NCBI GenBank assembly: GCA_050485365.1
Contig: JBJHBH010000002.1
Coordinates: forward strand, 1,788 to 65,787
Origin: Desulfuromonadales bacterium
GTDB lineage: Bacteria > Desulfobacterota > Desulfuromonadia > Desulfuromonadales > JACZKF01
Length of the DNA: 64,000 nt
Direction of reading: 5' to 3'
Shown: in pieces, positions 5,300-60,461 of the stretch
How the letters are laid out: the number at the start of each line of letters is the position of its first letter
How positions within the stretch are numbered: the stretch's first letter is position 1
The notes under the pieces: generated by a model
Told to the model about the DNA's origin: nothing
What the model saw: only the letters and a program-made list of their open reading frames with translations
The model's database searches: none
Program-made: the position numbers and the translations under genes

Positions 5300-5304
5300 G
5301 AAAG

Positions 5305-5329: not shown

Positions 5330-5343
5330 ACAGAACCCCCCAT

Positions 5344-6050: not shown

Positions 6051-6070
6051 ATCACAAGATGAATCTGTAA

Positions 6071-8086: not shown

Positions 8087-8154
8087 GAGAGGTTCCGATC
8101 GTTTTGCGATGCCGAGATCATGGCCTGAGCCCCGCCTCTCATGAAGCTTTACAC

Positions 8155-8198
8155 GGTGTTCTAAAATCGGTTTCCTAACCTAATTATTTTAGAACACC
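8155..8198. promoter_or_regulatory. 13-bp perfect inverted repeat (candidate operator or structured element) upstream of the redoxin gene
   Basis: 'ggtgttctaaaat' (8155-8167) and 'attttagaacacc' (8186-8198), 18-nt spacer, in an AT-rich 264-nt intergenic region. Confidence 0.5.
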
Positions 8199-8350
8199 CT
8201 GTCAAGGCTTAAAGTAATACCACCCCTTAATGATGTCAATATTTTTCGACAAAAGGCACGAAAAAGGGGCTTATTCGGATGAATGGTACAACATGGCGAA
8301 ACAGTTTAGCTTTATGGGACCATTTGTCCACCTCGCGCACGAAAAAAGTT

Positions 8351-8758: not shown

Positions 8759-8801
8759 GTTAAATCCTTCTTGAAAATGGAGGGCAGGGGATTTCCCTGA
8801 C

Positions 8802-9770
8802 CTACGCCCTGAACACTTCGAGGAGCCTTCGGGAGGCGGCCGAGGGAGTCGTCGTGCCGTCGGCGACGGCCTGCCGGATCTGTGGAAAAATCTCGCCGAC
8901 CCCCGGGTGGTGCAGGAAGAGATCCTTGAGGTCGTCCATCACGAGCCCCCACATCCACTCCACGGCCTGCTTGCGGCGGCGCTGGTCGAATTCGCCGCTC
9001 TCGCGCATGGCGCCGCGAAAGCGCTCCAACATCCCCCAGACCTCGTCCATCCCCTGCTTTTTCAGGGCGCTGGTGGTCAGCACCGGGACCTGCCACTGGG
9101 TGCTGCGGGGGCGCAGGATGTGCAGAGCGTTGAGGTATTGGCTTTTGGCAAGCTCGGTCTTGTGGGCGTCGATGTCGGCCTTGTTGATGACGATGGCGTC
9201 GGCGAGCTCCATCACCCCCTTCTTGATCCCCTGCAGCTCGTCGCCGGCGGTGGCGAGCTGCAGCAGCAGGAAGAAGTCGACCATGGAGGCGACGGTCGTC
9301 TCGGACTGCCCCACCCCGACGGTCTCGACGATGACGACGTCGTAGCCGGCCGCCTCGCACAGCAGCATCGTCTCGCGGGTGCGCCGGGCGACGCCGCCGA
9401 GGGTGGCCCCGGCGGGGGAGGGGCGGATGAAGGCGTTGGGGTCGCGGCACAGCTCTTCCATGCGCGTCTTGTCGCCGAGGATGCTTCCGCCGGTGATCTG
9501 CGAGGAGGGGTCGACGGCCAGGACGGCGACCTTGTGCCCGGCGGCGGTGAGGTGCGTGCCGAAGGACTCGATGAAGGTGCTTTTGCCGACCCCGGGGACG
9601 CCGGTGATGCCGATGCGCAGGGAGTTGCCGGTATGCGGCAGGAGGCGGTCGAGAAGATCCGCCGCCCGCCGCATGTCCTGGGGCCTGTTGCTCTCGATGA
9701 GGGTGATCCCCTTGCCGATGGCCCGGATGTTCCCCTGCAGAATCCTGTCGTAGAGCTCGTCAGGGTTCAT
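8802..9770 (-). CDS. meaB: Methylmalonyl-CoA mutase-associated G-protein chaperone (MeaB/ArgK)
   Basis: P-loop 'GVPGVGKST', 'VETVGVGQSE', 'INKAD'; located directly downstream of the mutase. Confidence 0.9.
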   Translation of the reverse strand: MNPDELYDRILQGNIRAIGKGITLIESNRPQDMRRAADLLDRLLPHTGNSLRIGITGVPGVGKSTFIESFGTHLTAAGHKVAVLAVDPSSQITGGSILGDKTRMEELCRDPNAFIRPSPAGATLGGVARRTRETMLLCEAAGYDVVIVETVGVGQSETTVASMVDFFLLLQLATAGDELQGIKKGVMELADAIVINKADIDAHKTELAKSQYLNALHILRPRSTQWQVPVLTTSALKKQGMDEVWGMLERFRGAMRESGEFDQRRRKQAVEWMWGLVMDDLKDLFLHHPGVGEIFPQIRQAVADGTTTPSAASRRLLEVFRA

Positions 9771-26951: not shown

Positions 26952-28258
26952 GACGCCCTCCGCTCGAAACGCTCGTTCTGCGCCGGCGTGAGGGAGTCGA
27001 CCTCGTCGGCGTCGCACAGAAGGCGCGAAATCCCCACCGAGGTGAACTCCTCGCCTTCTCTCAGGTCGAGCTGCAGGCGGCAGTCGCTGCAGTTGCGGTC
27101 GCAGAAGACCGGCTCGTAGGCGTCGGGCTCCTTGTAGGTGGTGATCACCCCCTCGTAGTTGCGCAGCACCACCTTGTTGGTCGACCACGAAATGAGGTAG
27201 CTCGGCATCACAGGAATCTTGCCGCCGCCGTGGGGGGCGTCGATGACGTAGGTCGGCACGGCGAAGCCACTGGTGTGGCCGATGAGGCTCTCCATGATCT
27301 CGATCCCCTTGCCCACGGGAGTCCGGAAGTGGGAGAGCCCCTCCGAAAGATCGCACTGGTACATGTAGTAGGGGCGGATGCGGTTCTGGACGAGCTTGTG
27401 CACCAGGGTCTTCATGATGCGCGGGCAGTCGTTGATCCCCGAGAGCAGGACCGACTGGTTCCCCAGCGGGATGCCGGCGTCGGCCAGCATGGCGATTGCC
27501 TCGCGCGAGCTGGCGGTGATCTCCCGCGGGTGATTGAAGTGGGTGTTGATCCAGATCGGATGATGCTTCTTCAGCACCGACACCAGATTGTCCGTGATCC
27601 GGTACGGCAGCACCACCGGGGTGCGCGTCCCGATGCGGATGACCTCCACATGGGGGATGGCGCGCAGCTCGCCCAGAATCCAGTCGATGTAGTCATCCTC
27701 CAGCAGAAACGGGTCGCCGCCGGACAAAAGGACGTCGCGCACGCCGGGCGTGTTGCGGATGTAGTCGATCCCCCGCAGGATCGCCTCGCGCCCCGAGACG
27801 TGATCGACGTCGCCCACCTTGCGCTTGCGGGTGCAGTGCCGACAGTACATGGCGCACACGTTGCTCACATGCAGCAGAACCCGATCGGGATAGCGGTGCG
27901 TCACCCCCGGCACGGGGCTGTCCTTGTCCTCGGCGAGGGGATCGGCCATATCGGTCGGCTGCACGATGAGCTCGTCGGGCGAGGGGAACGACTGCTTGAA
28001 GATGGGATCTTCGAGGTAGTTGGCCGTGTCGATGAGAGATAGATAATATGGCGTGATCGAGAGGGGGAATTTCTCCAGCGTCTGCTCCAGAACCTTGCGC
28101 TCCTTCTCGTCGAAGCGGATATCGAGCAGGCTCTCGAATTTCGCCAAGGTTCTCACCGAATGCCGAAGCTGCCACTTCCAGTCTTTCCATTGAGAAAGCA
28201 AAACGTTCGGCTCGACTTTCGATGCGATGCTGCGTTGCTTCTCACTGTAGATCGTCAA
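26948..28258 (-). CDS. ablA: Lysine 2,3-aminomutase (radical SAM, PLP)
   Basis: '[12 protein letters not shown]' (CX3CX2C), 'SGGDPFLL', '[12 protein letters not shown]'; 436 aa. Confidence 0.9.
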
Positions 28259-28500
28259 AACGTCACTCCTTGTATTTTTGAATCCACTCTAAATAGATTC
28301 AAGAAATGTTCTGCGAAAAATATCTTACGAGGCTAGCAACATCACACTTCGATGTCAACCCTTTGGGCCAGATAGAGAACTCCCAGCGTGCATGATCTAC
28401 CGATATTCTGCGCTGAAATTTGACGAAGTTTCACTGAAAGAATCACGCCATCGAGCCCGAAACGCCCACGAAGTCTGCCGAGAAAAAAGGAAATTTCCCC

Positions 28501-28529
28501 TTGACACCCGTGGGCGCTTCCTCTATAAA
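28501..28529 (+). promoter_or_regulatory. Sigma-70 promoter for tRNA-Phe
   Basis: 'TTGACA'-17 nt-'TATAAA', ending 15 nt before the tRNA 5' end. Confidence 0.7.
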
Positions 28530-28543
28530 GTTGATTCGATTTT

Positions 28544-28619
28544 GCCCAGATAGCTCAGTCGGTAGAGCAGTGGACTGAAAATCCACGTGTCGCTGGTTCG
28601 ATTCCGGCTCTGGGCACCA
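28544..28619 (+). tRNA. tRNA-Phe (anticodon GAA), CCA encoded
   Basis: Manual cloverleaf. Acceptor 'gcccaga'/'tctgggc'. D stem 'gctc'/'gagc'. Anticodon stem 'gtgga'/'tccac' with loop 'ctGAAaa'. T arm 'gctgg-ttcgatt-ccggc'. 3' 'acca'. Confidence 0.95.
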
Positions 28620-36139: not shown

Positions 36140-39100
36140 TCACAGCCCCTCGTGACCCACCCGGTTGCGCCCCTCGTCTTTGGCGCGATAGAGGGCCCGG
36201 TCGGCGCGGGCGAGGGCTTCGACCCGCTCGTCCTCTTTCCTCAGCAGGGTCACTCCCACGCTCAGCGTCACCCGAATGTCGTCGGCGCCGCTTCGGGCGG
36301 GCGTCTGCGCGAAGGCGTCGCGCAGACGCTCGGCGAAGCGCAGCGCCCCCTCGCCGTCGGTGCCGGGGAGCAGAACGGCGAACTCTTCGCCGCCCAGCCT
36401 GCCGATGAGGTCGATCTTGCGCAGCATCTGCTGAGCGAGCCGGGCGAAGTGCTTCAGAACGTCGTCGCCGGCGGCGTGCCCGTAGGTGTCGTTGACGCGC
36501 TTGAAGCGGTCGAGATCGACCATGAGCAGGGCCACCGGCTTTCCGAGGCGCTTGAAGCGCGCCAGCTCGTGGTCCATACGCTCCAGAAAAAAGCGCCGGT
36601 TGGCGACCCCGGTGAGAGCGTCGGTAGTGGCGAGGCGCCGCAGCTCGGCCTCGTAGGCCTTGCGCTCGGTGAGGTCCTGAAAGACGACGACGGCGCCGTC
36701 GCGCTCTCCATCCTCCTCGACGGGGTTGACGACAAGCTGCACCGCAAAGCCGGTGCCGTCCTTGCGGATGAACCACTCCTCGGCGCGGCGCGAGAGCCCG
36801 TCCTCGATGGTGCGGAAGATCGGGCACTTGGCGGCGGGATAGTCACTGCCGTCGGGGCGGTGGTGGTGAAAGAGGGCGTGCGGGTCGGCATCGAGAACTT
36901 CGGCAAGGGTGAAGCCGAGCATCCGCAGCGCCGCGGGATTGACGAAGGTGAGCTTCCCCGTGCGGTCGACGCCGTAGATCCCCTCCCCCGCCGCCATGAG
37001 CAGCACCTTGTTGCGCCGCGAGAGGCGCTCGACTTCGGCCCGAGCGGCGCGCTCCTCGCCGACGAGCTCCCCCAGCCGCTCGTTGACCCGGAGCAGCGCC
37101 GATTCGGCGCGCTTTCGCGCGGCGGTGTCCCACGCGAGGTCGGCCAACAGCGAGACGGTTTCCACATCCCACGAGGTGTAGTTCTCGGTCTTGTTCCCCA
37201 CCCCGAGGATCGCCACGATCGACTCTCCCCGAAAGAGCGGAACGACGAGCTGTCGCTCGATGGGCACATGCCCTTCGGGGAGCCCCCGGCGGTGGAGCAA
37301 GGCGGCGTAGTCGTTGTGGATGATCGCCCGGCCCTCGCGCACGCAGTCGACCCAGACCCCGGCCTTCTCCACGTCGTAGTGCATTCCCGCCCCATCCATG
37401 GTGCAGGCCCTATGCAGCGTCGCGCTCGACCACATCTGCAGTTCCAGCGTCTGTTGGTCTTCGCGCAGAAAATGGAAAAAGCCGATGCGGCTCGCGGTCA
37501 GCCGCTCGGCCTGGTCGATCGTCTCGCGCAGAAACTCCTCCAGCGAATGGGTCAGGGCGTAGTCGATCAGGTGCAGGCGCGCCCGGGAGAGGGCGTCCGC
37601 TCGCCGCCGCTCGGTGATGTCCTGCAGGCTGAACTGGAGCAGCTGCCGTCCCTGATGCTGAAAAGCCATCAGGTGCACCTCGGCGTCCCAGATCTCTCCG
37701 TCGGGGCGTCGGTGACGCCACTCGAAACGGTGCGATCCCCCCGCGCGGGCAGCCTCGATGCGGCCCTGCGCCGCCTCGGCCGACGCCGTCCCGTCGGGCT
37801 GCAGCGGAGCCGAGACGTCCAGCGGACTCCGACCCACGAGCGCCTTCGCGTCCTCGACGCGATACAGCCGAAGCGCTGCGGCGTTGCAGTCGATGAAGCG
37901 GCCGCCCGCCGGGTCCATGACCACCATGGCGACATGCGATTCGGCGAAGAGGAGCCGGTTGTACGCCTCGCTCTCGCGCAGGGCCTTTTCGGCCTCAATG
38001 CGGGTGGTGATGTCGTGGATGATGGAGAAGAGGAGCGTTCCGTTTTCAGTCTCGATGGGCGAGGAATGGACCTCGACGGTGCGGACCTCGCCGTCGGCGA
38101 GGCGATGGGGAAAGATGAAGTAATTGCGCCTCTGCTCGAGGGCGTTTCGTCGCTCGGCGGCGATCTGCTCCTCACCGAGCATGTTGATCTCGGCGACGCT
38201 CATCGCGCGCAGGAGATCGGCCGGATAGCCGTAGAAGCGCGCGGCGGCGGCGTTGGCGTCGACGATCCTCCCGGAGGCGGGATCGACCAGGAGCATTACC
38301 GCATCGTGGCGGTGAAACAAGCCCCGGAAATGCTCTTCGCTTCGGCGAAGCTCGGCGGTCACGTCATCGATGCGGCGCTGCAGGCTGTTGCGGGTGGCGC
38401 CGTAGAGCCAAAGCAGAAGAAGCTGAGAAGCGACGTATCCGCCGACAAGCGCCGCCGCATCGACGCGGCGGTGACGCTCGTGGGCGGCGAAGGGCTCGGA
38501 ACGGTCGCGCCAGACGACGACCATACCGACAGGGGGGCGCGCCGGATCGCGTCCATGAAGGTAGTCGTGAAGGGGGAAGGTGGTCACATGCCAGCGCCGC
38601 CCGCCCCAGGCGGCCTTGAAAGAGCGGAGCGGCTCTTCGCCCAACGGCACGGATCCGCTCATCAGCCACGGCGTCGCCTCGGAGCGGGACGTCGATGCCA
38701 GATAGCTCCCCGTCTTCTCGATCAGGGGGCCGTTCAATCCGAGGTATTCCGCCCAGACGGTCTCCTCCACGACGCGGCGTTCGAGCAGGACGGCGACCCC
38801 GGCGTCGGCGAGGCGATCGAAGTACTCGACCTGCGAGCGAAGCGACATCCCCGCCTCCAGCACACCGATGCGTCCTCCCTGCGGGTCTTTGACGGGCACC
38901 ACCGCCCGCAGCCCCGAGAAGGCGCGGCCGATCTCGAAGCCGCTGCGGGGAATTCCGTCGGCGTTGACGTCCTCGATGACGGCACGCACCCCGTCGAGGC
39001 GGTCGCCGAAGCGCTCGGGGGCGTGCACCCGCAGAAACGACTTCGCGCCGGGTCCGAGGTGAAAATGGAGCTGCTGCGCGCCGAATTGCCGCTGCAGATC

Positions 39101-50137: not shown

Positions 50138-50832
50138 GCCCGCGGTGCGCCCTGACGCTGGTCGGGACGGTGCACCGAAGCGGGGGCGAGGCGTTGCTCG
50201 CTGAGCTGCTTCTCCGGGAGCGCCCCGAGATCGTGACGCTCGAGATGAGCCCCTACGCCCTCGCCTTCAGGCGCGGGCGGGGGCCTTCGCTGCTGGCGCG
50301 GCTCGATGCGATCCTCGATCGCCTCGCGGCCGAGACGCATCGAGCCCCCGAAACCCTTCGCCCCCACCCCCGCATCGAAGCGATCCGCACCCTCGTCGCC
50401 CTCCCCTTCGAATACACCGCCGCGGCCGCCTACGCCGAGGCCACCGGCATCCCGGTCGATCTCATCGACTCTTCGTTGATCTCGGCCCGAAAGCTGCGCC
50501 GCGTCGAGCGCGAGCTCATCACACTCGAAAACATGCGCACCCTGCTGACCTTGGAGCCCGAGTCGCCCCAAGAGGACCATCGCCTCGCCAGGGCGATGAC
50601 GGGCGAAAAGACCGATCCGGCGATCCGGCGCGCCTTTCTCGCCACGCGGCGCGGTCCAGAGGCGATCGGGGAGCGCGACCGGCGCATGGCGGACGCCATC
50701 CGCCGCCGCGCGGCCGAAGGCCGAAGAATGGTCCATATCGGCGGGTGGATCCACCTGATGGAGGACGAACAGAAAGAAACGCTCTACGAGAGGGTGCGCG
50801 ATCTGGAGCCGTGCAGGGTGGTGATCGGGTGA
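50134..50832 (+). CDS. TraB/GumN-like family protein (tentative)
   Basis: ATGA overlap with the ilvA stop. N-terminal 'LTLVGTVHRSGGEA...RPEIVTLEM' resembles the TraB 'GTAHVS' start. 232 aa. Confidence 0.5.
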   Translation: MSPRCALTLVGTVHRSGGEALLAELLLRERPEIVTLEMSPYALAFRRGRGPSLLARLDAILDRLAAETHRAPETLRPHPRIEAIRTLVALPFEYTAAAAYAEATGIPVDLIDSSLISARKLRRVERELITLENMRTLLTLEPESPQEDHRLARAMTGEKTDPAIRRAFLATRRGPEAIGERDRRMADAIRRRAAEGRRMVHIGGWIHLMEDEQKETLYERVRDLEPCRVVIG

Positions 50833-50839: not shown

Positions 50840-52066
50840 CTACCCCACGAACAGCATCCCCGCGATGGCGGCGCTCAGCAGGTTGGCGAGAGTCGCCGCT
50901 AATAGCGCCCTCAACCCGAGGTGCGCCACCTCGCTTCGGCGCTCGGGGACGAGCTCGCCGATGGTGCCGATCTGGATGGCGATGGAGGAGAAGTTGGCAA
51001 AGCCGGTCAGGGCGAAGCAGGTGAGCATGAACCCCTTGGGGGAGAGGGTCGCCTCGGAGATGGCGCTGAAGGCGACGACCTCGTTGAAGGCCGTCTTGGT
51101 GCCGAGCAGGTGGGAGAAGGCCGCCACGTCGTGGGACGGGACCCCCACGACCCAGGCCGCCGGGGAGAAGGCGACCCGAAGAAGCGTCTTCAGATCCAAA
51201 TGCCCCTGCGTGACGGCGCCGAGGACCCCGTCCAGCAGGTGGATGAGGGAGATGAAGGCCAGCAGCATCACCGCCACCCCGACCACCGCCCTCCACCCCT
51301 CCATCGCCCCGCGGGCCACGGCGTCGAGGACGTTGATCCCGTGCTCGGCCTTTTCGGTCTCCGGGCTCTCGACAAGAGCACCGGGAGACGTCTCGGGGAT
51401 GAGGATCTTGGCGAAGACGATCGCGGCGGGCGCTGCCATGATGCTGGCGGCCAGCACATACTCCAGGCGCGCCCCCATCCCTGCGTAGGCGATCAGCAAC
51501 CCCGAGCCGACCGTCGCCATCCCCCCCGTCATGGTGAGAAAGAGCTGCGAGCGGCTCATGCTTCGCAGATACGGCGCGATGGTGAGAGGCGCCTGGGTCT
51601 GCCCGAGAAAGACGTTGCTCGCCGTCACCACCGCCTCGACGCTGCCGATGCCGAAGACGCGGCCGAAAAGCCCCGCCATCGCGCGAACGATGCGCTGCAT
51701 GATTCCGTAATAGTAGAGGACCTTGATCAGCGCAGCGAAAAAGACGATCGGCACCAGCGCCTGCAGGATGAAGGCGTAGGGCCACCCCTCGAACCCGTCG
51801 ACCTGAGCGAAGCCGGTGTAGAGCGGACCGAACACGAAGCGCGTCCCCTCCGAGGCGTATTGTAAAATCTTGTGCAGCCCGGCGCTGATCACCTCGAAAA
51901 AGGTGCGCCCCGGCGCGGTGCGCAAAACAAGAAAGGCGAACAGGAAGATCAGCCCCAGCCCGTAACCGACCGGCTTCCACCGGATCGCCCGACGGTCACT
52001 CGAACACAGAACCGCCAGCGCAACCAGCACCGCAATCCCCAATACCCCTCGAAGAATCTGTTCCAT
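50840..52066 (-). CDS. nupC: NupC/NupG-type concentrative nucleoside transporter
   Basis: 408 aa polytopic membrane protein. N-terminal 'RGVLGIAVLVALA.LCS.DRRAIRW' and C-terminal 'GFANFSSIAIQIG' are typical of CNT/NupC. Confidence 0.8.
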   Translation of the reverse strand: MEQILRGVLGIAVLVALAVLCSSDRRAIRWKPVGYGLGLIFLFAFLVLRTAPGRTFFEVISAGLHKILQYASEGTRFVFGPLYTGFAQVDGFEGWPYAFILQALVPIVFFAALIKVLYYYGIMQRIVRAMAGLFGRVFGIGSVEAVVTASNVFLGQTQAPLTIAPYLRSMSRSQLFLTMTGGMATVGSGLLIAYAGMGARLEYVLAASIMAAPAAIVFAKILIPETSPGALVESPETEKAEHGINVLDAVARGAMEGWRAVVGVAVMLLAFISLIHLLDGVLGAVTQGHLDLKTLLRVAFSPAAWVVGVPSHDVAAFSHLLGTKTAFNEVVAFSAISEATLSPKGFMLTCFALTGFANFSSIAIQIGTIGELVPERRSEVAHLGLRALLAATLANLLSAAIAGMLFVG

Positions 52067-52100
52067 TGCAACGAATCCACTTCATGCCGCAGTGCCGGCG

Positions 52101-52134
52101 AAAAAAACGCCGCGCTCTTGTGTGGAGCGCGGCG
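52101..52134 (-). terminator. Rho-independent terminator closing the low-G+C island operon
   Basis: Minus strand 'cgccgcgctc-cacacaa-gagcgcggcg' followed by T7. Confidence 0.8.
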
Positions 52135-52224
52135 ACAGTGTGCACCAACTCAGTAAAATGGGCAAGCTCAGGATCCTACCCCTCCTAAAATCATGGCGGG
52201 GACGAAATGTAGTTGTCGTTATCG

Positions 52225-53853
52225 CTAGCGAGGGATTTGTGGCAAGGATCCGACATCGCTCAAGGTGCCAGGATTCATCTCCCCGCCTGAAACCGTAACT
52301 TCTATAGGGCCGAATATCATCGCTTCGCTGGCAAGATATAGGTTGTAGTGACCGTCATGGACGTCCTGTAGGTCGATTGCGAAACGCGCGCCTTCAACCC
52401 CTCCATAGACGACAATATAAGCTGAGCTCAGAGGATCCCCTTTCTTTTTGAGCACAAGGTGATCGATTTCGGTCCCCTCTGCGCCATTGACGACTCCATT
52501 GAACTCTCTTTGAGCCAAGTAATTTCTCACCCAGGCGTGGTAGTTCGCCTCAAACTCCGCCACGGTCAGGGGGTTCCCGTTGCGCGTGAGATGCGCAGCG
52601 AAAGCGTCGGGAAAACTTGCTTCGAGGCTCATTTCAACCAGAAGGTTGATAAACTGCTGAAGCGTGTTTCCCGCGCCGCCTTCTTCCGTGGGCGCCAGAA
52701 GATAGCGCAATGCAAGGGCATAGTACGGATAGTATAGGCCGTCATCAGGAATGCTCAAGAAGTGTTTGGCGGAGATCGGGTTGGCATTGTTTTCGCCAAA
52801 GAAGAGATCGTACTCGATCGTACTCTCGGCCCCGGGGGCGTTTTTCGACGTAAGGACAGCGAGCCCCTCGCTGAACCACCGCTCGACACGGTACGGGGAA
52901 AACCCCTGTGCCGTTCCGTCAAGATTTAGCTGGATGGTGTGCGTCAGCTCGTGCTTGATGAGTTTGCGGTAAAAACGATCATCGTTGTCGGTCAGATAGC
53001 TCATGTCGTGCAGTCCAGTGTCCAGCGCCGTCACTTCAATGCCATCCACAAAACCGGTCCCACCAGAATTGGGAGTTTGCCTGTTGCAATGCACGATCCA
53101 TCGTTTCTCGCCAAGGCCGAGTTCTTCGGCGGTGAGTCCAAAGAACTCCAGCAATTCCGCGAGTGCCTCTTCACTGTAGGTGGCGACCTTTACAAGCACA
53201 TCGTCCGAGCTGGGGCTGGAGGCGTGAGTTGAGACAATGAAATATTGTGTTACGAAAACACGATCCGCCTTATCTGCAGGAAGAGTGAGCCCTAGTACCG
53301 AAGCAGAAGCAAATTGTCCGATGACCGAATCAGAGGGTGGGTTATTTTCGACAGGTTGAGTCGGCAATGGCCTGTCCCAGTACGTGTTATAGAACTCAAT
53401 GGCTTGACTCAGGCCTGTTTCGGCATTGAAAAACCAACCTTCATCATATTCACCATCAAAAACGATTTTTGAATTTTCTTCCTCAATTACAATTCTTATG
53501 CTGTGAAATGTGGTCAAATTGACATTGTTGACCATGAAGCTTGACCGCAGTCTTCCATCCGAGAGAATCTCCCAAGTACCTGTTAAATTTTCTTCTGGAA
53601 CACCGGTTTTAATATGAGCACCTCTCGTAGCCTGACCGCCGGGATGAAAAGTCATTGAGGCGTAGCCATCGTCGGCGCCAATGTATACTGTTTTCCCTAC
53701 AATCATCTCTTCGGTAAAAGGAATTGGATCGCTTGGCGGAGAAGTAGGCGCTCCAGGATTAAGGTTTTCAGGGCTAACATCCCCTCCCCCACCGCAGGCT
53801 GCCAACAGTATTGCCAATAAACCTAGGCATAGTTTTTTTCTAAATTTAAACAT
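52225..53853 (-). CDS. Lipoprotein with gluzincin-like zinc-peptidase motif
   Basis: Start at ATG 53853 after 'ggaaggg'. Lipobox 'LLAAC'. 'LIKHELTHTIQ' (HExxH) with Glu 18 residues later, and 'RWFSEGLAV'. 542 aa. Confidence 0.65.
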   Translation of the reverse strand: MFKFRKKLCLGLLAILLAACGGGGDVSPENLNPGAPTSPPSDPIPFTEEMIVGKTVYIGADDGYASMTFHPGGQATRGAHIKTGVPEENLTGTWEILSDGRLRSSFMVNNVNLTTFHSIRIVIEEENSKIVFDGEYDEGWFFNAETGLSQAIEFYNTYWDRPLPTQPVENNPPSDSVIGQFASASVLGLTLPADKADRVFVTQYFIVSTHASSPSSDDVLVKVATYSEEALAELLEFFGLTAEELGLGEKRWIVHCNRQTPNSGGTGFVDGIEVTALDTGLHDMSYLTDNDDRFYRKLIKHELTHTIQLNLDGTAQGFSPYRVERWFSEGLAVLTSKNAPGAESTIEYDLFFGENNANPISAKHFLSIPDDGLYYPYYALALRYLLAPTEEGGAGNTLQQFINLLVEMSLEASFPDAFAAHLTRNGNPLTVAEFEANYHAWVRNYLAQREFNGVVNGAEGTEIDHLVLKKKGDPLSSAYIVVYGGVEGARFAIDLQDVHDGHYNLYLASEAMIFGPIEVTVSGGEMNPGTLSDVGSLPQIPR

Positions 53854-53884
53854 CGAAACATCACCCTTCCTTTGATATGAATGC

Positions 53885-54301
53885 TTACATTGAAGATATG
53901 TACCATTTTTTATCATTCTTTATAAACTTAAACCCCTTGCTTTCTTTTAATATTTCGCCAGACTCAAATGCTCCATACTCTTCTTCTAGCACTCCCATCA
54001 CGACTGAGATTCCCAACAAATCATCATACCCCTTTGCCTCCTCATACATTTGATGACCGATTTCTTGGAGACCGATTTTGAATTTAATTTGATATTCTAC
54101 TTCGGCAACATAACTATTGTCATTTACGTTTTTGCCACTTGTTTTCTTCACATTAACTACATCGTAAATCAAGTCGCCACCATCTGCCAGAAGGGCAGCT
54201 CGAACTTGAGTTTCAACCTCTGACTTTTTTGGCTCATTCGAACAGGCAGCCATCAAGAGTGTCATTATAATTATTAAGATAAGATTTAGCTTTATCTTCA
54301 C
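53885..54301 (-). CDS. Small lipoprotein, unknown function
   Basis: Lipobox 'LLMAAC'. 138 aa. Very AT-rich codon usage compared with the rest of the window. Confidence 0.6.
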   Translation of the reverse strand: MKIKLNLILIIIMTLLMAACSNEPKKSEVETQVRAALLADGGDLIYDVVNVKKTSGKNVNDNSYVAEVEYQIKFKIGLQEIGHQMYEEAKGYDDLLGISVVMGVLEEEYGAFESGEILKESKGFKFIKNDKKWYISSM

Positions 54302-54328
54302 AATCTTTACCTTTCGTCTCAGTAACCT

Positions 54329-54646
54329 CTAGCCCTCAACAACTGCTTCCTGATTCGCCATCTTCCCTGTGTTGTCCGCTATACGGAAGATCACGATCAG
54401 GAGCTCCAGCCAGAGTCGACTCATGACAAGAAGGAGTGCCGCCGTTATTACCCCACCCAAAAGTCCGCCCACGACTCCGAGAACTCCCCCTTCCGCCAAT
54501 CCGGCAAGAATCACGGTGAGACCGGTCAAGACAGATCCGATCATTGATATGACGTAGAGAATTTTTATCATTTTAATTGTGATGAACTGATTGAAGTCCA
54601 AATCCATCAGATTCGAAATAAATCCGTTTTTATTCATGTGACTCAC
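54329..54646 (-). CDS. DUF4282-like small membrane protein
   Basis: 'LMDLDFNQFITIKMIKILYVISMIGSVL' followed by Gly-rich TM helices; 105 aa. Confidence 0.6.
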   Translation of the reverse strand: MSHMNKNGFISNLMDLDFNQFITIKMIKILYVISMIGSVLTGLTVILAGLAEGGVLGVVGGLLGGVITAALLLVMSRLWLELLIVIFRIADNTGKMANQEAVVEG

Positions 54647-54677
54647 CTATCCTTTATTGGTCAGATGGCATCTGAAG

Positions 54678-55442
54678 TCAGAAAAAATTCGCAATTTGAT
54701 AAGAGAGCGAATCACTGATGGCCCTTGCAGCCTCTGCTCTATCCATATTCGTCTTTGTTGCCGTCACGACAATTCGAGTGTAGTAATCAATTTTGTCAGT
54801 GTCCTCCTGGTAATCTGTCCTGGATTGCTGCCCCCGCACCGAAGCCGAGGCGACGGCACGCTCCTGTGTCCCCGCACGGGTTCTCATTCCTTCGGCTGCA
54901 ACATTCTGTGTAGTCGTTGATCGTTGCGCCGTACCTTTCACCCGCTCTTTGATCTGTACATCGACGACTCCGAACCACCTGTCGACGCTGACCATAGAAC
55001 CCAAAGCTGCGCCGGCTATACCGCCCACCCCTGTGCCAACTGTCGCCGATTTCCAGGATCCCCCGGTCGCGGTCCCGACCATCGCTCCTCCAAATCCTCC
55101 AATCATGGCGCCTTCTGCCGTCATTCCCTCGCGTTCTCGTTCAAGGGCGACAAACACGACATTCAGCTCATGGTTCGCCTCCCGTGCGTCTCTGGTGACT
55201 TTGTAGCCTCTAAGCGACAGTTCATTGATCAGAAGCCTTTCGAAATCGAGCTCTCTGACATCGGACTGATTTCGAACTCTCACATAGATCGGTTTACCTT
55301 CCGAGATCATCTCTTCGTTGAGAAAGAGTGCCTGTGTCAGTCTCGATTCGGTCTCCAAATTTCTGTGCGCCACTGCCGAGCAGCCGGATAGAATCATTAC
55401 AGCCAACACCATCAAGAGACACCCCAATTTCATGCGATACAT
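54678..55442 (-). CDS. traT: TraT-like outer-membrane lipoprotein (surface exclusion / complement resistance family)
   Basis: Start at ATG 55442. Lipobox 'ILSGC'. Collinear with F-plasmid TraT as I recall it: 'RNLE..', Gly-rich central segment 'GGFGGAMVGTATGG', 'VVDVQIKERVKG', and 'YYTRIVVTATKTNM....ISDSLSYQIANFF' at the C-terminus. Confidence 0.75.
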   Translation of the reverse strand: MYRMKLGCLLMVLAVMILSGCSAVAHRNLETESRLTQALFLNEEMISEGKPIYVRVRNQSDVRELDFERLLINELSLRGYKVTRDAREANHELNVVFVALEREREGMTAEGAMIGGFGGAMVGTATGGSWKSATVGTGVGGIAGAALGSMVSVDRWFGVVDVQIKERVKGTAQRSTTTQNVAAEGMRTRAGTQERAVASASVRGQQSRTDYQEDTDKIDYYTRIVVTATKTNMDRAEAARAISDSLSYQIANFF

Positions 55443-55516
55443 TTTCTTTTCCTTTCGTGTTTGAAGGTTTGCGATCGTTTCGTTCTTACCCACGTTTTTC
55501 CCTCCTGTCTCCCGCC

Positions 55517-56410
55517 TTAAAACGGGCCTTCCAATGGCCGCAGCTCGTAGGCTGAAGCGCGTATGACTTCCATAACTTCGGCGTCGTGGCCGTGTATCGG
55601 CCACTGCCTGCAGATTCTGATCTGGACGTGGTGCTCGTTGGCCTGCGCGACGCGCAGTAGAGCGCTGATTTTGTTGGAGCGGTCCTTACCTCGGCCGCGG
55701 CTCGCCTCGAGTTTGAAGGCGTTGCGCCCGGCGCTGCGGATGCTTGCGCGGTTGCCGACGATGAGCACGTGCTTGGGCTGGTGCGGTGTGGCCGACGCGA
55801 CGAATTTTCTGAGGGTCTCGAGATTTTCCCGGTGGTAAGCGAGATCCTGATCGTTGCGCGGGTTCGGGTCTCGGCCGCTTTGTTGCGGAAAGGGGGAGAG
55901 CTCCATGTGCAGGATCTTTCCATCGCAAAAGTGCGCCTCTTCGTCCGGGGCCATGAAGTAACCTGCTTTCCCGCAGTGCGCCAGGCGGGGGTTTTCCTGC
56001 TGCCAGGAGCCGTCTTCGCTCCAGGGGGCTTCGCCGTTGATTTCGCCGATTTCAGGGTGGTTTGTGAGGCTGAGCCAGGAGAGCATCGCCACACGGAAGC
56101 GCTCGGCGACATCCTCGAAGGAGGACGCGGTGCGAAGGTCGCCATAAAATTTTTCGATGCCGCCGAGCCCCGGTTCGTTGGTCACCAAAACAATGCGCGC
56201 CTGCGCGATCTGCTCATCGCCCCAGCGCGGAAATTGCGGCGTCTGCCGGAGAAATTTTCGCAGCGACAGCTCACCGCTATGCAATCGCGACAGATTCTCT
56301 TCGACAAGGGGTCGCTCGGACGCAGAGGGGAGATAGGGGTTGTAGGCGCCGAAGTCGTACAGGCTTCGGCGCCTTTGAGGCAGGGTTTCGCTCTTGAAAT
56401 GCTGTTGCAT
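55517..56410 (-). CDS. Hypothetical 297-aa protein, first gene of the island operon
   Basis: Start at ATG 56410 after 'ggagggg'. The longer ORF start (56512) would lie upstream of the predicted -24/-12 promoter. No family recognised. Confidence 0.6.
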   Translation of the reverse strand: MQQHFKSETLPQRRRSLYDFGAYNPYLPSASERPLVEENLSRLHSGELSLRKFLRQTPQFPRWGDEQIAQARIVLVTNEPGLGGIEKFYGDLRTASSFEDVAERFRVAMLSWLSLTNHPEIGEINGEAPWSEDGSWQQENPRLAHCGKAGYFMAPDEEAHFCDGKILHMELSPFPQQSGRDPNPRNDQDLAYHRENLETLRKFVASATPHQPKHVLIVGNRASIRSAGRNAFKLEASRGRGKDRSNKISALLRVAQANEHHVQIRICRQWPIHGHDAEVMEVIRASAYELRPLEGPF

Positions 56411-56481
56411 GTCCCCTCCGCGCCGATGCGCCGTGAAGCCTGAATGCGGAGGTTCGCCCCCCCTACTGCATCCATAGCCAT

Positions 56482-56497
56482 CGCACAGAGCGTGCCG
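56482..56497 (-). promoter_or_regulatory. Sigma-54 (-24/-12) type promoter
   Basis: Minus strand 'CCGGCACGCTCTGTGCG'. GG (56496-56495) and GC (56484-56483) have canonical spacing. About 60 nt upstream of the island's first ATG and divergent from a bEBP gene. Confidence 0.6.
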
Positions 56498-56521
56498 GAA
56501 TCGGCAAAGCATGAAAAACGC

Positions 56522-56542
56522 TTTTAATCCGAGGGATTAAAA
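56522..56542. promoter_or_regulatory. Perfect palindrome, candidate activator-binding site (UAS)
   Basis: 'ttttaatcc-gag-ggattaaaa', about 35 nt upstream of the -24 element. A second looser IR 'ggtgttttca..tgaaaacc' lies at 56581-56624. Confidence 0.45.
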
Positions 56543-56657
56543 TTCGGGCGGGAGGGAAAGGGCCACTGTGCGCAAAAGAGGTGTTTTCAAAAATTTAATT
56601 TTCGGCTATCATTTTCTGAAAACCTCATTGAGTGTTTCACATGTCCGGAGGGGGAAC

Positions 56658-58259
56658 ATGTCCACGCTGCATCTCTATTGCGATCTTCGCGAACCGTCTC
56701 TATCCCGCGCAACCCAGGAAGCCCGACGCCTGCGAAGCTACCGGCTTTGCATCGGGCACGTCCGCACCGGCAGTTTCTGCGATAAACTCCTTGAGCTCCG
56801 CCACATCATGGGCGAAGACGACCTCGGGCTGATCGCCCTCGTTCATGCCCACGGCGATCAGCTTGCCGATGCCTCCCGGGCCATCTCCCTTTTTCCCCGC
56901 GACCTGCGAAACCGAATCATCATCACCGCCTCCGGCTGGGCGCCTGAGCTTCGGTGTTGGGCCGAGAAGAACGGGCTTCGATTCGAGGAGAACCGATACG
57001 AGGCGCCGCGCCGCCCTCCCTGGTCCGCGCCGCGCTCGACCGATGCCGTTTCGATTCCCGAAAGACAGTGGGTCCAGTATCGTCTGATGCGCGCGTTGAT
57101 TGCGGGCGATCCGACGGGGGAGGTCTTCATGGAGATCGTCGAGAAACTGCGCCGCGGCATCCCGTCGCCCGACGAGCTCGCCCGCGCCCGCACCTTTCAC
57201 GAGCGGGGCGAGCCGGATATGGCCGGAGGGAACTACGCCGAGGAGCGCCAAATCGACCCCAACGCCATCGATCTTTTGCGCGAACGCGCCGTTCAGGTCG
57301 GGCGCTCGGGGCTCAATACCCTCATCGTGGGAGAGACGGGGACGGGGAAGGAGTCCCTCGCCTGGTATCTTCACGACTTCAGCACCCGGTGCGATGCGCC
57401 GTTTCTGGCCCTGAACTGTGCATTTTTCGAGGCAGAGCGCCTGGAGTCGGAGCTTTTCGGACACGAGCAGGGGGCCTTCACCGACGCCAAGAAGGCCAAG
57501 AGGGGATTGGTTGAGGAGGCGGACGGAGGGACGATCTTCCTGGACGAGCTGCCGGAGATGGCCCCGCGTGTGCAGGCCAAGCTTCTGCGCTTTTTGCAGG
57601 ACGGAAGCTACACCCCGCTGGGGGGAAACCAGGTATTCCGGGCCGATGTGCGCATCCTCGCCGCCGCCCAGCCGGGGCGGATGGAGAGGCTTCGCCCCGA
57701 CCTGTACTACCGCGTCGCCGACGTGGAGCTTCACACCGTGCCGCTGCGCGAGATGGCGGCGCGCGACATTGTGAACATCGCCTGCAATCTGGCCTACCGC
57801 CTGCTGTGGCGCCCCCTCATCGGGGAGACGGGGACGACGACGCTGACGCCGGACGTCCTTCGAGAGGTCACCAAAGAGCTGACCGTGCCCGAGAACGCCG
57901 CGGCCCTCTGCGGCTATCGCTGGCCCGGCAACATGCGCGAGCTCTCCACACGGATCAAGCGCTTCGTTCTTCTGGGGGACGACATTTTCCGGGAGATCCG
58001 CGATGAGCCGGCGCGAAAGAACGAAAGCCAAGTGGGAGGGGCCGTCGTGCGCGACGAAGAGCTCAGACGCTTTCTCCTCCCAGCGGCGCGGATCGAAGAG
58101 ATCGCCGAGAGGGGGCTGACCCTGAAGAACCTCAACGCCGCCTACCTGCGCCACCTCGTCGCCACCCTCGGCGGGAAGGAGCGGATCCGCCCGACCAAGC
58201 TCGCCGAGGCTCTGGGGTGCAGCTACAACACACTGGTCGCTCATCTCGAGGAGCGCTGA
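56658..58259 (+). CDS. Sigma-54-dependent transcriptional activator (bEBP) with uncharacterised N-terminal region
   Basis: Start at ATG 56658 after 'ggaggggg'. AAA+ Walker A 'GETGTGKE', 'ESELFGHEQGAFTDA', 'GGTIFLDEL', 'RILAAA'. C-terminal Fis-type HTH 'PTKLAEALGCSYNTLVAHL'. Confidence 0.9.
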   Translation: MSTLHLYCDLREPSLSRATQEARRLRSYRLCIGHVRTGSFCDKLLELRHIMGEDDLGLIALVHAHGDQLADASRAISLFPRDLRNRIIITASGWAPELRCWAEKNGLRFEENRYEAPRRPPWSAPRSTDAVSIPERQWVQYRLMRALIAGDPTGEVFMEIVEKLRRGIPSPDELARARTFHERGEPDMAGGNYAEERQIDPNAIDLLRERAVQVGRSGLNTLIVGETGTGKESLAWYLHDFSTRCDAPFLALNCAFFEAERLESELFGHEQGAFTDAKKAKRGLVEEADGGTIFLDELPEMAPRVQAKLLRFLQDGSYTPLGGNQVFRADVRILAAAQPGRMERLRPDLYYRVADVELHTVPLREMAARDIVNIACNLAYRLLWRPLIGETGTTTLTPDVLREVTKELTVPENAAALCGYRWPGNMRELSTRIKRFVLLGDDIFREIRDEPARKNESQVGGAVVRDEELRRFLLPAARIEEIAERGLTLKNLNAAYLRHLVATLGGKERIRPTKLAEALGCSYNTLVAHLEER

Positions 58260-58277: not shown

Positions 58278-58415
58278 GGTATCTATTCACCCTGTGTGGG
58301 GTCGCGGCTCCCATGACAGGGGTGACCGGCGCCATAGACGGCGCCGGTCAAGCGGCCATGGCCGGCGAAAAGCGTCCCTTGGCATGGGAGTTGGGACCCA
58401 ATGCTGAACCGTTAC
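58278..58415 (+). repeat. Structured intergenic repeat, copy B (long subtype)
   Basis: 138 nt, near-identical architecture to copy A, including the 24-nt internal duplication. Confidence 0.9.
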
Positions 58416-58542: not shown

Positions 58543-59085
58543 ATGCGCATGGTCCCATCCGACGAGCAGCTTATGGCAGCCTACGCCGAGGGCGACCCGG
58601 AGGCTTTCGAAGCTCTCTACGCCAGGCACAGGGATCGCATTTTAGGGTATCTTTTCAGCAGGCTGCGCGACCGTGACGAAGCCGAGGAGGTCTTTCAAAC
58701 GGTCTTCGCCAAGTTGCACGCGAGCCGCGACCGATACCGTGAAGACATCCCCTTTCTCCCCTGGGTCTTCACCATCTGCCGCAACGCCTTGGTCGATCAC
58801 CTGCGCAAAGTCTCGAAATACCGCCGACGCGAGGTCCTCACGGACGACCCCGGGCACGACATCCCTGCGCCCACCTCCTCTGGCGGCTCCATCGACAACA
58901 TCATTGCCGGGATGTCGAGTCTCACCCCGAGCCAGCGGGCGATACTCGAGCTGCGCTTCGAGCAGGGTTTTTCCTTCAACGAGATTGCCGGCCGCCTTGA
59001 AACCAGCACCGCCAACGCTCGCCAGATCGTCAGCCGCACGATCCGTCACCTGCGCCAAAGGCTCGGAGAAAGGAGGGTACGATGA
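58543..59085 (+). CDS. ECF-type sigma-70 family sigma factor
   Basis: Region 2 'FLPWVFTICRNALVDHLR'. Region 4 'LTPSQRAILELRFEQGFSFNEIAGRLETSTANARQIVSR'. ATG 58549 is an equally good start. Confidence 0.9.
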   Translation: MRMVPSDEQLMAAYAEGDPEAFEALYARHRDRILGYLFSRLRDRDEAEEVFQTVFAKLHASRDRYREDIPFLPWVFTICRNALVDHLRKVSKYRRREVLTDDPGHDIPAPTSSGGSIDNIIAGMSSLTPSQRAILELRFEQGFSFNEIAGRLETSTANARQIVSRTIRHLRQRLGERRVR

Positions 59086-59621
59086 GGCCCGATTCCGACG
59101 GCAGCAAAGATCTGATCAGAGAGTTTTCGCACTTCGTCGATGCGCCGAGTCTGACGCCGCGGCGCAAAACCGACGAAGCGGTTCTGCGCAGGGCGCAAAC
59201 CGGGGGGAGACCGTCCCTTCGCGCGGTCGTCCTCAAGTTTTCGGCGATTCAGGGGGCCGCAGGGATGGCGACGCTGGCTCTCTGTCCCCAGTTCGGCGTC
59301 GGCACCGCCTCGCACAACGCCTTCGTGCATTCACTTCACGCGCACGCGCACCCCGCTCTTTATTATCTGAGCTGCGGCGTGCTGTTCGTCCTTCTCGGCG
59401 CCTTTCTGATCGGCATCGCCTCGAACAGGCGCGATCTAAAAGCTCTCGGCCGCCGCAAATTCGCCTACTTCTGCGGATACACCCTCGGCGCCTATCTCGT
59501 TCTTCTTCTGGCGGGCACCGAGCCGTTTCTTCTGGTTTCGACCTTCTGGCTTCTGGGAGGGTTCGGCGCGCAGTTGATCGGTTTCGGGATCGGCAGACGC
59601 CTGAGGCTGATCAGCACCTGA
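59082..59621 (+). CDS. Putative membrane anti-sigma factor
   Basis: ATGA overlap with the sigma gene; RBS 'aaaggaggg'. About 4 TM helices. His cluster 'HNAFVHSLHAHAHP'. Assignment by position only. Confidence 0.55.
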   Translation: MRPDSDGSKDLIREFSHFVDAPSLTPRRKTDEAVLRRAQTGGRPSLRAVVLKFSAIQGAAGMATLALCPQFGVGTASHNAFVHSLHAHAHPALYYLSCGVLFVLLGAFLIGIASNRRDLKALGRRKFAYFCGYTLGAYLVLLLAGTEPFLLVSTFWLLGGFGAQLIGFGIGRRLRLIST

Positions 59622-59730: not shown

Positions 59731-60315
59731 TCAGTGGGCGTGCTCGCCGTGGACGACGGCCGCGATCCCCTCGACGAAATGAACGTAGTTCACATAAGCT
59801 TCCACGAACTCGCGACCGGCCGTCACGCTCTCGCCCGAGCGCGCCCGCAGCTCCATGGCATGCGCGAAGCGCTCCCGCAGCTCCGTGCCGACATGGGCGG
59901 AGATTGCATCGGCCAGCTCTTCGACGGAGCCTTGCGCCAGCGCCTTTTCTGCCTTCAGAATGGGGGGATCGATCATCCCGGCGGGCTTCAGGCCGGTGTA
60001 GGGGGCGCCTTCGGCGGCGCGGTGCACCCGCACGAGGGTCTCCAGAAAATATCGGTCCGCCAACTCCATCGCCTTCGGGTTGAGGGCGCGCACCTGCCGG
60101 GCCTGATCGAAAGCGTGCCGGATTTCGTCCTCCTGCTCGGGGAGGACCCATTTGAGCAGCGGCGCGACGTTCCCCTCCTCCAGCGCAAGGCGCGCCTCGG
60201 AAACGACCGGCCCGTCCAGCGCATCACAGTGCGCCGCCGCCGTGTGCGGGACGAGCAATGCGAGCGCGACAAGGACCACCACCATCTTCACACCTTTTCT
60301 CACTTTTCCGATCAT
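59731..60315 (-). CDS. Secreted DUF6448-like protein
   Basis: Start at ATG 60315. Signal peptide ending 'HTAAA'. Mature N-terminus 'HCDALDGPVV'. C-terminus 'HGEHAH'. Confidence 0.6.
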   Translation of the reverse strand: MIGKVRKGVKMVVVLVALALLVPHTAAAHCDALDGPVVSEARLALEEGNVAPLLKWVLPEQEDEIRHAFDQARQVRALNPKAMELADRYFLETLVRVHRAAEGAPYTGLKPAGMIDPPILKAEKALAQGSVEELADAISAHVGTELRERFAHAMELRARSGESVTAGREFVEAYVNYVHFVEGIAAVVHGEHAH

Positions 60316-60461
60316 CTCTGCATTCCTTTCGGGTTCTGGGCGCAAGCGGCCCTGGTTGGCTGAGAGATTCGCATCCCCCACGGCGTCGGGGGTCGGCGAT
60401 CCCTCGTCTGGTCGGTTCTACCCGAGAGGACGTAAGGGGCACGGAATTTGTGACAAAAAAA

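Follow-up and report, generated by a model that had tools for sequence, protein, structure and literature searches.

The stretch analysed here, a 64,000-nucleotide (nt) segment of contig JBJHBH010000002.1 from a Desulfuromonadales bacterium (hereafter the window), carries a row of five minus-strand genes within 52225-56410, divergent from the gene of a sigma-54 bacterial enhancer-binding protein (bEBP). Using six-frame open reading frames (ORFs) and family scans with Pfam and NCBIfam, the row was resolved in its direction of transcription into genes for a cytoplasmic protein of 297 amino acids (aa) (55517-56410), a TraT-family outer-membrane lipoprotein (54678-55442), a DUF4282 membrane protein with two hydrophobic helices (54329-54646), a 138-aa lipoprotein (53885-54301) and a 542-aa lipoprotein (52225-53853), with intergenic gaps of 23-74, 31, 27 and 31 nt from 5' to 3'. 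The row ends at an intrinsic terminator on the same strand (52098-52134; CGCCGCGCTCCACACAAGAGCGCGGCG then TTTTTTT), in which nine of the 10 stem pairs (52134-52108) are G-C. This is the only strong terminator of the operon region, with no convincing one 5' of 52108-52134. The gene lying 3' of it on the minus strand encodes a 408-aa NupC-family nucleoside transporter (50840-52066; Pfam Nucleos_tra2_C 2.9e-62, Nucleos_tra2_N and Gate), which is probably a separate transcript in the window given this position. On the other side of the row, the 533-aa bEBP is encoded on the plus strand at 56658-58259. A preliminary description of this DNA had reported the tight spacing of the five genes, the strong terminator and the divergent bEBP, and all three are present.

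The same description had called the row a low-G+C five-gene island, and here one gene has to be taken away. In 400-nt windows, G+C drops to 0.365 at 53.8-54.2 kb, 5.7 standard deviations under the window mean; outside the region the mean is 0.646, with a standard deviation of 0.049 and a minimum of 0.468. At third codon positions, G+C (GC3) is 0.565 in the TraT gene, 0.575 in the DUF4282 gene, 0.374 in the 138-aa gene and 0.536 in the 542-aa gene, compared to 0.75-0.92 in eight flanking genes (0.88 in the NupC gene). The 297-aa gene (0.745) and the bEBP gene (0.81) are in the native range. The compositional anomaly is thus real for the four downstream genes, covering 52.2-55.5 kb, and the 297-aa gene and bEBP lie outside it.

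The neighbours within 48.9-62.2 kb are a threonine dehydratase, NupC, an extracytoplasmic function (ECF) sigma factor, a 179-aa ORF, DUF6448, DUF2064 and FolE2. The family scan of the flanking ORFs gave no match for the 179-aa ORF nor for an ORF at 50200-50832. In agreement with the earlier observation that mobility and conjugation machinery is lacking nearby, none of the eight flanking ORFs that were scanned here was identified as an integrase, transposase or transfer gene; two of the eight have no family. Searches for direct or inverted attachment-site repeats flanking the cargo (the genes downstream of the 297-aa gene) yielded chance-level matches only, and the sole tRNA of the window, a tRNA-Phe at 28.5 kb (28544-28619), lies far from the row. 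Of the usual marks of a genomic island, atypical composition was therefore found for four genes, and an integrase or transposase, a tRNA target and direct repeats were not. Rfam matches for a leader RNA or riboswitch in 50-60 kb were all sub-threshold.

Related loci and the operon core

DNA context was compared by a tblastn map across 14 loci from Desulfuromonadia-like genomes and metagenomes. Related loci are given as L-numbered stretches, and the counts below are for 14 distinct loci including the window. A genome scan with the single 297-aa sequence gave no loci, an alignment-based genome scan gave three, and a metagenome scan with TraT gave one. In each of the 12 loci whose DNA covers the upstream side, the 297-aa operon is divergent from an orthologous bEBP gene (64-80% identity; 64-67% for the bEBP of the window and its orthologues), and all 14 loci have a NupC homologue at most two genes away from the bEBP or the 297-aa homologue, its side and orientation varying. 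In Desulfuromonas versatilis (class Desulfuromonadia) and in the metagenome locus L014, the genes are ordered FolE2-DUF2064-bEBP<->297aa-...-NupC, as in the window, the shared backbone also taking in QueC (QueC-FolE2-DUF2064-bEBP-297aa-...-NupC). Along it, FolE2 and NupC are each 78% identical and the bEBP 67%. The synteny kept with D. versatilis, together with native GC3, indicates that the regulator, the promoter and the 297-aa gene are native and old, and that the variable part of the locus is the DNA between promoter and NupC. The cargo of this slot consists of single-domain response regulators only in L002, L006 and L018, a response regulator-GGDEF protein and a lipoprotein in L001, a Peptidase_C92 protein, a DUF4878 protein and a lipoprotein in L008 and L019, ankyrin proteins in L013, and TraT sets in the window, L005, L017 and L010. 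TraT and a kindred large lipoprotein are thus present at the site in L005 and L017; in L001 and L014 they are missing or persist as a relic.

These comparisons bear on the central claim of the preliminary description, that bEBP, promoter and five genes are one horizontally acquired, self-contained inducible surface module. Such a module would account for the divergent regulator, the tight gene row and the low G+C in part of the region. It is nevertheless very improbable, as the bEBP and the 297-aa gene are native in composition, the backbone synteny with D. versatilis and L014 is kept, the bEBP/297-aa pair occurs in 12 or more loci without the cargo of the window, and the cargo genes differ in age. 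Only four genes are foreign, and these are of unequal age, with the bEBP, the promoter and the 297-aa gene being native. Of the gene set, the bEBP/297-aa pair and TraT recur in related loci; the DUF4282 and 138-aa genes were found in the window only.

The other side of the bEBP also differs between loci. An ECF sigma factor gene (58543-59085), an overlapping 179-aa ORF (59082-59621), which is possibly an anti-sigma factor, and a minus-strand DUF6448 gene (59731-60381) lie between the bEBP and DUF2064 in the window. As the bEBP directly adjoins DUF2064 in D. versatilis (L001) and L014, the segment 58543-60381 is a second insertion at the locus, of near-native composition (GC3 0.75-0.80). A perfect GC-rich palindrome, ACCGGCGCC-ATAGAC-GGCGCCGGT, stands at 58325-58348, 66 nt past the bEBP stop codon, and is probably the terminator of the bEBP gene or a bidirectional terminator. 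The other lowest-G+C stretches of the window, at 0.47-0.51 in 400-nt windows, are 28001-28600, which adjoins the tRNA-Phe gene, and 7001-8400.

Promoter, regulator and the 297-aa protein

Upstream of the first gene, a minus-strand sigma-54 promoter with GG-N10-GC spacing is predicted at 56482-56498 (CCGGCACGCTCTGTGCG, 56498-56482; CGGCACGCTCTGTGCG, 56497-56482), its GG at 56496/56495 and its GC at 56484/56483. Transcription would start near 56471, giving a 5' untranslated region of about 61 nt. Each of the 12 loci with intergenic DNA has a [T/C]GG[C/T]R[C/T]-N5-NTGC element at the head of its operon. It is the sole -24/-12 motif along most of the related operons, and the operon of the window has just one. 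The motif is made credible by this conservation in related loci and not by its occurrence in the window. Both the motif and the sigma-54/bEBP control of the gene row that had been proposed from it are supported, the element standing in the same place in every related locus that could be compared. The other exact GGCAC-N6-TGC match in the window (GGCACCGGCTTTGC, 36744-36757, minus strand) may be a sigma-54 promoter or a chance occurrence.

Further upstream, a TTTCA-N5-TGAAA-type palindrome is centred 91-95 nt from the -24 GG in 10 of the 12 loci, with weaker copies in the window (about 96 nt from the GG) and in L017. A second related site, TTTCAnAAnTnnTA, is found about 22-23 bp beyond the first. 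In the window, the candidate bEBP enhancer spans 56585-56621 and consists of two such conserved sites, site A (56607-56621, TTTCAGAAAATGATA) and site B (56585-56599, ATTAAATTTTTGAAA), the latter with a degenerate left half. Site A is the only match in the window with one mismatch or none (0.62 expected by chance). Overlapping sites A and B is a sigma-70-like promoter for the bEBP gene (TTTTCA-17-TATCAT, 56584-56612, plus strand). The sequence that the preliminary description had put forward for a bEBP binding test was a different one, a perfect 9+9 palindrome (TTTTAATCC-GAG-GGATTAAAA, 56522-56542) centred about 36 bp upstream of the -24 GG. This palindrome is present as described, one of about 11 short-loop palindromes in the window (about 3.7 in shuffles) and the sole AT-rich one, but its position is occupied by unrelated hairpins or AT-rich sequence in related loci. 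It was rejected as the main enhancer, being unconserved in 11 related loci where other conserved sites exist.

The bEBP, whose true start is ATG 56658, matches Pfam Sigma54_activat (PF00158) at 7.9e-49 and is made up of a receiver-like (beta-alpha)5 domain, a helical linker, an AAA+ domain with a GAFTDA loop and a C-terminal helix-turn-helix (HTH); the NtrC, NifA and PspF models of NCBIfam align up to residue 561 of its ORF. Walker A (GETGTGKE), Walker B (FLDELPE), the HTH and GAFTDA are invariant in 10 orthologues. In the loop that contacts sigma-54, GAFTGA is replaced by GAFTDA, a form listed among the loop variants expected to keep activity, as in DVU2106 (PMC4641369). In an AlphaFold2 model of residues 1-215 (mean predicted local distance difference test score, pLDDT, 69), strands and helices follow the order beta1-alpha1...beta5, with residues 1-112 forming the (beta-alpha)5 fold at pLDDT 56-90. 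The top Foldseek matches are receivers and pseudo-receivers (the N-terminal domain of CpaE, 4dad/4n0p; KdpE; Rcp1; PorX), with modest figures (template-modelling (TM) score about 0.5-0.6, root-mean-square deviation 3.2-3.7, E 3e-3 to 5e-2). The phospho-acceptor aspartate at the end of beta3 is absent; the window protein has histidine at this position, and 10 orthologues show H, Y or N there. On this ground, and on the model, we read the domain as a pseudo-receiver, and its classical phosphorylation would be unlikely. A CARF/RtcR-type sensor was considered as well and rejected, since the N-terminus models as a receiver-like fold and the PADLOC RtcR_PspF2 match (1e-65; protein 231-561, profile 173-476) spans the AAA+ domain and HTH only.

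The invariant partner of this regulator, the 297-aa protein, had no match in Pfam, NCBIfam, PADLOC or PHROG. It belongs to a very rare family, with 28 homologues among 5.8 billion proteins and, by profile search, 19 clusters among 1.84 billion representatives. Its 54 invariant positions include many polar residues, in motifs such as NPY, TNEPG, CGKAGY, NPRND, YH..N, GNRA and KDKS. The AlphaFold2 model is confident (pLDDT 84.8, predicted TM score 0.86) and has no structural neighbour in the PDB (best Foldseek E 0.056, TM 0.24) or in BFVD, and a profile search of the PDB also gave no match. The resemblance of TNEPGL, NPRND and GNRA to motifs of uracil-DNA glycosylases (UDGs) led to a divergent UDG-like enzyme being considered; this identity was rejected, as there is no Pfam match, no PDB profile match and no UDG fold in the top 50 PDB Foldseek matches. 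No extra domains were found in remote relatives of the protein. The longest ORF for this gene (55517-56512, 331 aa) begins at ATG 56512, upstream of the sigma-54 promoter. Both the place of this promoter and an alignment of homologues favour ATG 56410, which gives the 297-aa product.

The constancy of NupC opens a second reading, in which the bEBP, NupC and an enzymatic 297-aa protein serve together as a regulon for acquiring nucleosides or nitrogen, with the lipoproteins (ligand-binding domain plus protease) capturing or releasing substrate outside the cell and TraT as a structural accessory. In L008, a gene of the nucleoside phosphorylase family PNP_UDP_1 (2892-3755) lies directly 3' of the bEBP on the same strand, and likewise in L009; this and the constant NupC hint that the regulator is connected with nucleosides. 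Nitrogen scavenging is often under sigma-54 control. The adjacency of NupC in 14 of 14 loci despite changes of side and orientation, and the enzyme-like set of invariant polar residues in the 297-aa protein, are also as this regulon would predict. We consider it unlikely all the same. The terminator cuts NupC off from the operon in the window and in L017, where an equivalent terminator separates the last lipoprotein gene from NupC, and NupC is convergent with the bEBP in L002, L006 and L018. The 297-aa protein is without detectable similarity to any nucleoside enzyme, and known TraT biology suggests no role in uptake. Inherited synteny could account for the constant NupC neighbour, given that the loci all belong to a single bacterial class.

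The lipoprotein cargo

The TraT-family protein matches Pfam TraT (PF05818) over the whole profile (positions 1-214 of 214) at 2.5e-40, scoring 139 bits against a cut-off of 31, and carries a lipobox (LSGC). It aligns end to end with the solved TraT structures 9fsm, 9fs5 and 9e2v (residues 22-253 with 6-222, E 8e-14). Identity to TraT of F-like plasmids is 28-30%, and against the NCBIfam equivalog PRK13731 the protein reaches 64 bits where the cut-off is 445, so that it is not an orthologue of plasmid TraT. An alternative start, GTG 55493, stands 7 nt after an AGGAGG placed directly past the stop codon of the 297-aa gene.

Two TraT lineages occur in this operon family. The first comprises the copies in the window, L005 and L017, which share 71-82% identity and the same operon position; the window copy is 75% identical to that of L005 and 71% to that of L017, values close to those of NupC (78%) and above those of the 297-aa protein (53-60%). 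The second is found in L010, where TraT is placed upstream of the 297-aa gene and has 38% identity to the window copy and 77% to a copy in an integrase island of L016. In L014 (11317-11415) and L015 (4713-4811), a 34-aa ORF matches the 33 C-terminal residues of the window TraT at 73% identity. This 33-aa relic sits between a conserved 87-aa ORF and NupC, and indicates that TraT was lost from the slot in that lineage. In three contexts, the gene after TraT encodes a small membrane protein, namely DUF4282 in the window, a T4 Imm-type protein in L010 and a 64-aa zinc-ribbon/transmembrane protein in L016. The L010 gene (9406-9765), which encodes a superinfection-immunity protein of the T4 Imm type (PF14373 1.5e-17, phrog_1039 5e-22), lies between TraT and the 297-aa homologue within a chromosomal sigma-54 operon.

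In the preliminary description, the TraT homologue was noted as orphaned from any transfer system. This is not unusual, chromosomal TraT homologues having been reported in 2025 from seven phyla, in variable contexts (PMC11733297). What is new here is the recurrence of TraT within one operon family, which would give chromosomal TraT its first defined regulatory context.

The 542-aa lipoprotein (lipobox LAAC) is composed of an N-terminal domain (about residues 46-157), a central HELTH...WFSEG domain and a beta-rich C-terminal part. The central motif is H301-E-L-T-H305, with E329, 24 residues past HELTH, in WFSEG. One full-length homologue was found among 5.8 billion proteins, in L005 at 44% identity, and HELTHTIQ...RWFSEGLAV is fully conserved in it. 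The protein had no Pfam match and no PDB sequence match; its alignment with NCBIfam flagellinolysin (residues 295-447, 7e-6) reaches 25.7 bits against a cut-off of 205. From these motifs, the central domain looks like a zinc peptidase, with E329 as a predicted metal ligand. The N-terminal domain, with the motif GKTxY...GTWxI..DGxL (FT..M..GKT.Y ... GTW.I..DG.L), is more widespread. It matches L010_507 (E 8e-14), L019_398 (4e-8) and L008_248 (5e-4) and, via these intermediates, L001_415 and L017_421, and is present in 7 of 14 loci, often duplicated. In the window, this shared-domain lipoprotein is fused to the HExxH...E peptidase-like domain. The NCBI call for the gene is a 436-aa product without the signal peptide and lipobox.

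The two genes between TraT and this lipoprotein have a different distribution. The DUF4282 protein matches its Pfam profile at 7.6e-20 (71.7 bits, cut-off 27; positions 1-85 of 86) and was found only in the window among the related loci; in L005, the gene of the large lipoprotein comes next after that of TraT. The 138-aa lipoprotein (lipobox MAAC), absent from all related loci, is encoded by the most AT-rich gene of the row and is rich in Lys, Asn and Ile, with K/(K+R) at 0.94, a composition that suggests long residence in an AT-rich genome. A relative of it (E 1e-10 by tblastn, 8e-8 by blastp) adjoins TraT in the L016 island, where the order is TraT, 64-aa zinc-ribbon/transmembrane protein, 138-aa-type lipoprotein. 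The island (1959-9623) is headed by an integrase of the tyrosine recombinase type (DUF6538 plus Phage_integrase) and has 43-50% G+C, next to a DcuB gene at 61%. On the Shewanella xiamenensis plasmid pXY8M38-1 (NZ_CP143636.1; L022), a 144-aa lipoprotein (4947-5381) has 26% identity to the 138-aa protein (E 4e-6) and its gene comes shortly after traD, a hypothetical gene, a DUF4400 gene and a 56-aa ORF. Judged by these relatives, the 138-aa-type proteins form an unannotated family of small lipoproteins tied to transfer regions.

Two other origins for the cargo were considered and rejected. A phage origin finds no PHROG match of note: no TraT was found in the phage collection, no 138-aa or DUF4282 relatives in viral contigs, and DUF4282 had no match in plasmids either. 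A known defence system was set aside because no PADLOC model matches the cargo.

These distributions also bear on whether the cargo belongs to the operon at all. The low-G+C genes could be passengers that settled in a permissive interval reaching from the 297-aa gene to nupC, silent or served by promoters of their own, with no tie to sigma-54. The restriction of the DUF4282 and 138-aa genes to the window genome among the loci fits such a view, as do the mobile contexts in which 138-aa relatives stand together with TraT, the sigma-70-like sites within the AT-rich DNA and the very different genes held by the slot across genomes. In our estimate it is improbable. Within this operon family, at differing positions, the shared lipoprotein domain recurs, as does TraT in two unrelated lineages; independent recruitment of two TraT lineages makes a pure passenger origin less likely. 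The junction between the 297-aa gene and TraT has no terminator and places AGGAGG right after the 297-aa stop, and in L017 the matching order 297aa-TraT-lipoprotein-terminator is found at native G+C.

Taken together, the comparisons resolve the locus into three layers and not one imported island. On the evidence of synteny and composition, the first is a native core of bEBP, sigma-54 promoter, 297-aa gene and NupC neighbour. By its recurrence, the second is a habitual cargo of TraT and the shared-domain lipoprotein, with G+C under that of the hosts. The third is an insertion of the DUF4282 and 138-aa genes between TraT and the large lipoprotein, recent by its composition and its absence elsewhere, whose arrangement resembles the TraT-small membrane protein-lipoprotein module of the integrase island.

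Proposed model and comparison with known systems

We favour, with moderate confidence, the reading that this is a native sigma-54-switched operon with exchangeable outer-membrane cargo, probably serving as a surface barrier or exclusion layer. In this model, the bEBP would bind the enhancer at 56585-56621, about 95 and 118 bp upstream of the -24 element, and activate the sigma-54 promoter, at the same time repressing its own gene through the overlap of these sites with its sigma-70-like promoter. Activator sites laid over the promoter of the regulator itself are a classic layout for activating one gene and repressing its own. As the receiver lacks the phospho-acceptor aspartate, the signal probably arrives via a partner protein or ligand, candidate partners being the 297-aa protein and the single-domain receivers of sister loci. 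The four cargo genes would be co-transcribed from the sigma-54 promoter, from about 56471 to the terminator at 52108-52134, as suggested by the gaps of 23-74 nt, the AGGAGG after the 297-aa stop, the single strong terminator, the layout of L017 and the single -24/-12 motif. Recombination across the conserved flanks, formed by the 297-aa gene and nupC, may move cargo from one lineage to another, which would explain low G+C without mobility genes or repeats. At the weakest step of the model, firing of the bEBP would equip the envelope with a lipoprotein ring of TraT type and accessory lipoproteins, together with a surface protease and a small protein of the inner membrane. The product would be a barrier or exclusion layer at the surface that can be switched and is directed against incoming DNA or contact-dependent attack. 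A barrier is favoured by the pairing of TraT with a small membrane protein and by the conjugative and integrative contexts in which relatives of the module are found. The exclusion role gains some support from the occurrence of this pairing in three independent contexts, one of them with a T4 Imm-type protein.

Several observations weigh against this reading. On the regulatory side, GGCAC-N6-TGC-type motifs number 2 in the 64 kb with 2.5 expected, which alone is not above chance; the window -24/-12 element is off consensus (C for T before GG, GTGC for TTGC), and one half of site B in the window is degenerate. Sigma-70-like sites exist in the AT-rich cargo (e.g., ATGACA-18-TAGAAT at 54123-54094), and the equivalent genes of L017 are 197 and 251 nt apart, leaving room for internal promoters. 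On the functional side, the strong cargo differences between loci mean that the slot may merely tolerate insertions. The invariant NupC and the purine-nucleoside phosphorylase gene of L008 point to nucleoside metabolism and not to exclusion, the chromosomal contexts of TraT are described as being of unknown function (PMC11733297), and the sole PADLOC match of the cargo, TraT to LeoB at 5e-4, falls in a glycine-zipper stretch.

A stronger version would make the locus a previously unrecognised chromosomal, sigma-54-inducible exclusion system, embodying an ancestral role of TraT that plasmids later co-opted. Here the 297-aa protein would act with the pseudo-receiver bEBP as sensor or co-regulator to switch on an outer-membrane TraT ring, an inner-membrane blocker (the DUF4282 or T4 Imm-type protein) and accessory lipoproteins with a surface protease among them, with effectors swapped between lineages under arms-race selection, and the cell would be shut against conjugative DNA, phage or contact-dependent attack. 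This version is improbable. In either version, the locus offers a concrete experimental system, with a promoter, a regulator and candidate sites, for the role of TraT outside plasmids. If the exchange across flanks is true, foreign envelope genes would come under a host sigma-54 switch without mobility genes.

Among known systems, the closest working likeness is pspF/pspABCDE of Enterobacteria, of which the locus is an analogue and not a member, as it encodes no Psp proteins. In both, a bEBP is divergent from a sigma-54 envelope operon, the enhancer (a candidate one in the window) overlaps the regulator promoter, and the regulator is without a working sensor of its own, with control presumably exerted via an operon-encoded partner. 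Unlike the psp system, the window has no PspA, PspB or PspC homologues by Pfam and NCBIfam, its bEBP keeps a receiver-like domain and a helical linker of about 100 aa, and its products are outer-membrane lipoproteins and not inner-membrane effectors; partnership with the 297-aa protein is a guess. Compared with NtrC-type bEBPs, the regulator shares the receiver, AAA+ and HTH architecture, a GAFTGA-type loop and intact Walker A and B motifs, and differs in lacking the phospho-acceptor Asp, in its GAFTDA loop and in having no adjacent histidine kinase gene.

The cargo has likenesses of its own. As in traS-traT of F-like plasmids, a full-length TraT with lipobox and glycine-zipper helix is encoded beside a small inner-membrane protein, and this plasmid pairing is paralleled by the TraT and small-membrane-protein contexts (PMC11733297). 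The window differs in its 28-30% identity, in lacking a tra operon, in having TraT first and the small protein second, in DUF4282 not being TraS, and in its predicted control by sigma-54. The chromosomal TraT homologues of the same report likewise stand on environmental Gram-negative chromosomes away from transfer genes, whereas the context here is a defined one, a conserved sigma-54/bEBP operon that has taken in two TraT lineages. With the flagellinolysin and gluzincin HExxH...E peptidases, the 542-aa protein shares HELTH and a downstream Glu, kept in its sole homologue; unlike them, it falls below the curated cut-off and is a lipoprotein whose N-terminal domain is common to non-peptidase lipoproteins. 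Finally, the locus resembles O-antigen and capsule cassettes in that its surface genes are low in G+C, variable between relatives and held between conserved flanks with no mobility gene, although it encodes lipoproteins, is on a far smaller scale, and its exchange by recombination is a proposed one. The parts are individually of known kinds, and the family as a whole is best described as a conserved sigma-54 operon with exchangeable envelope-lipoprotein cargo.

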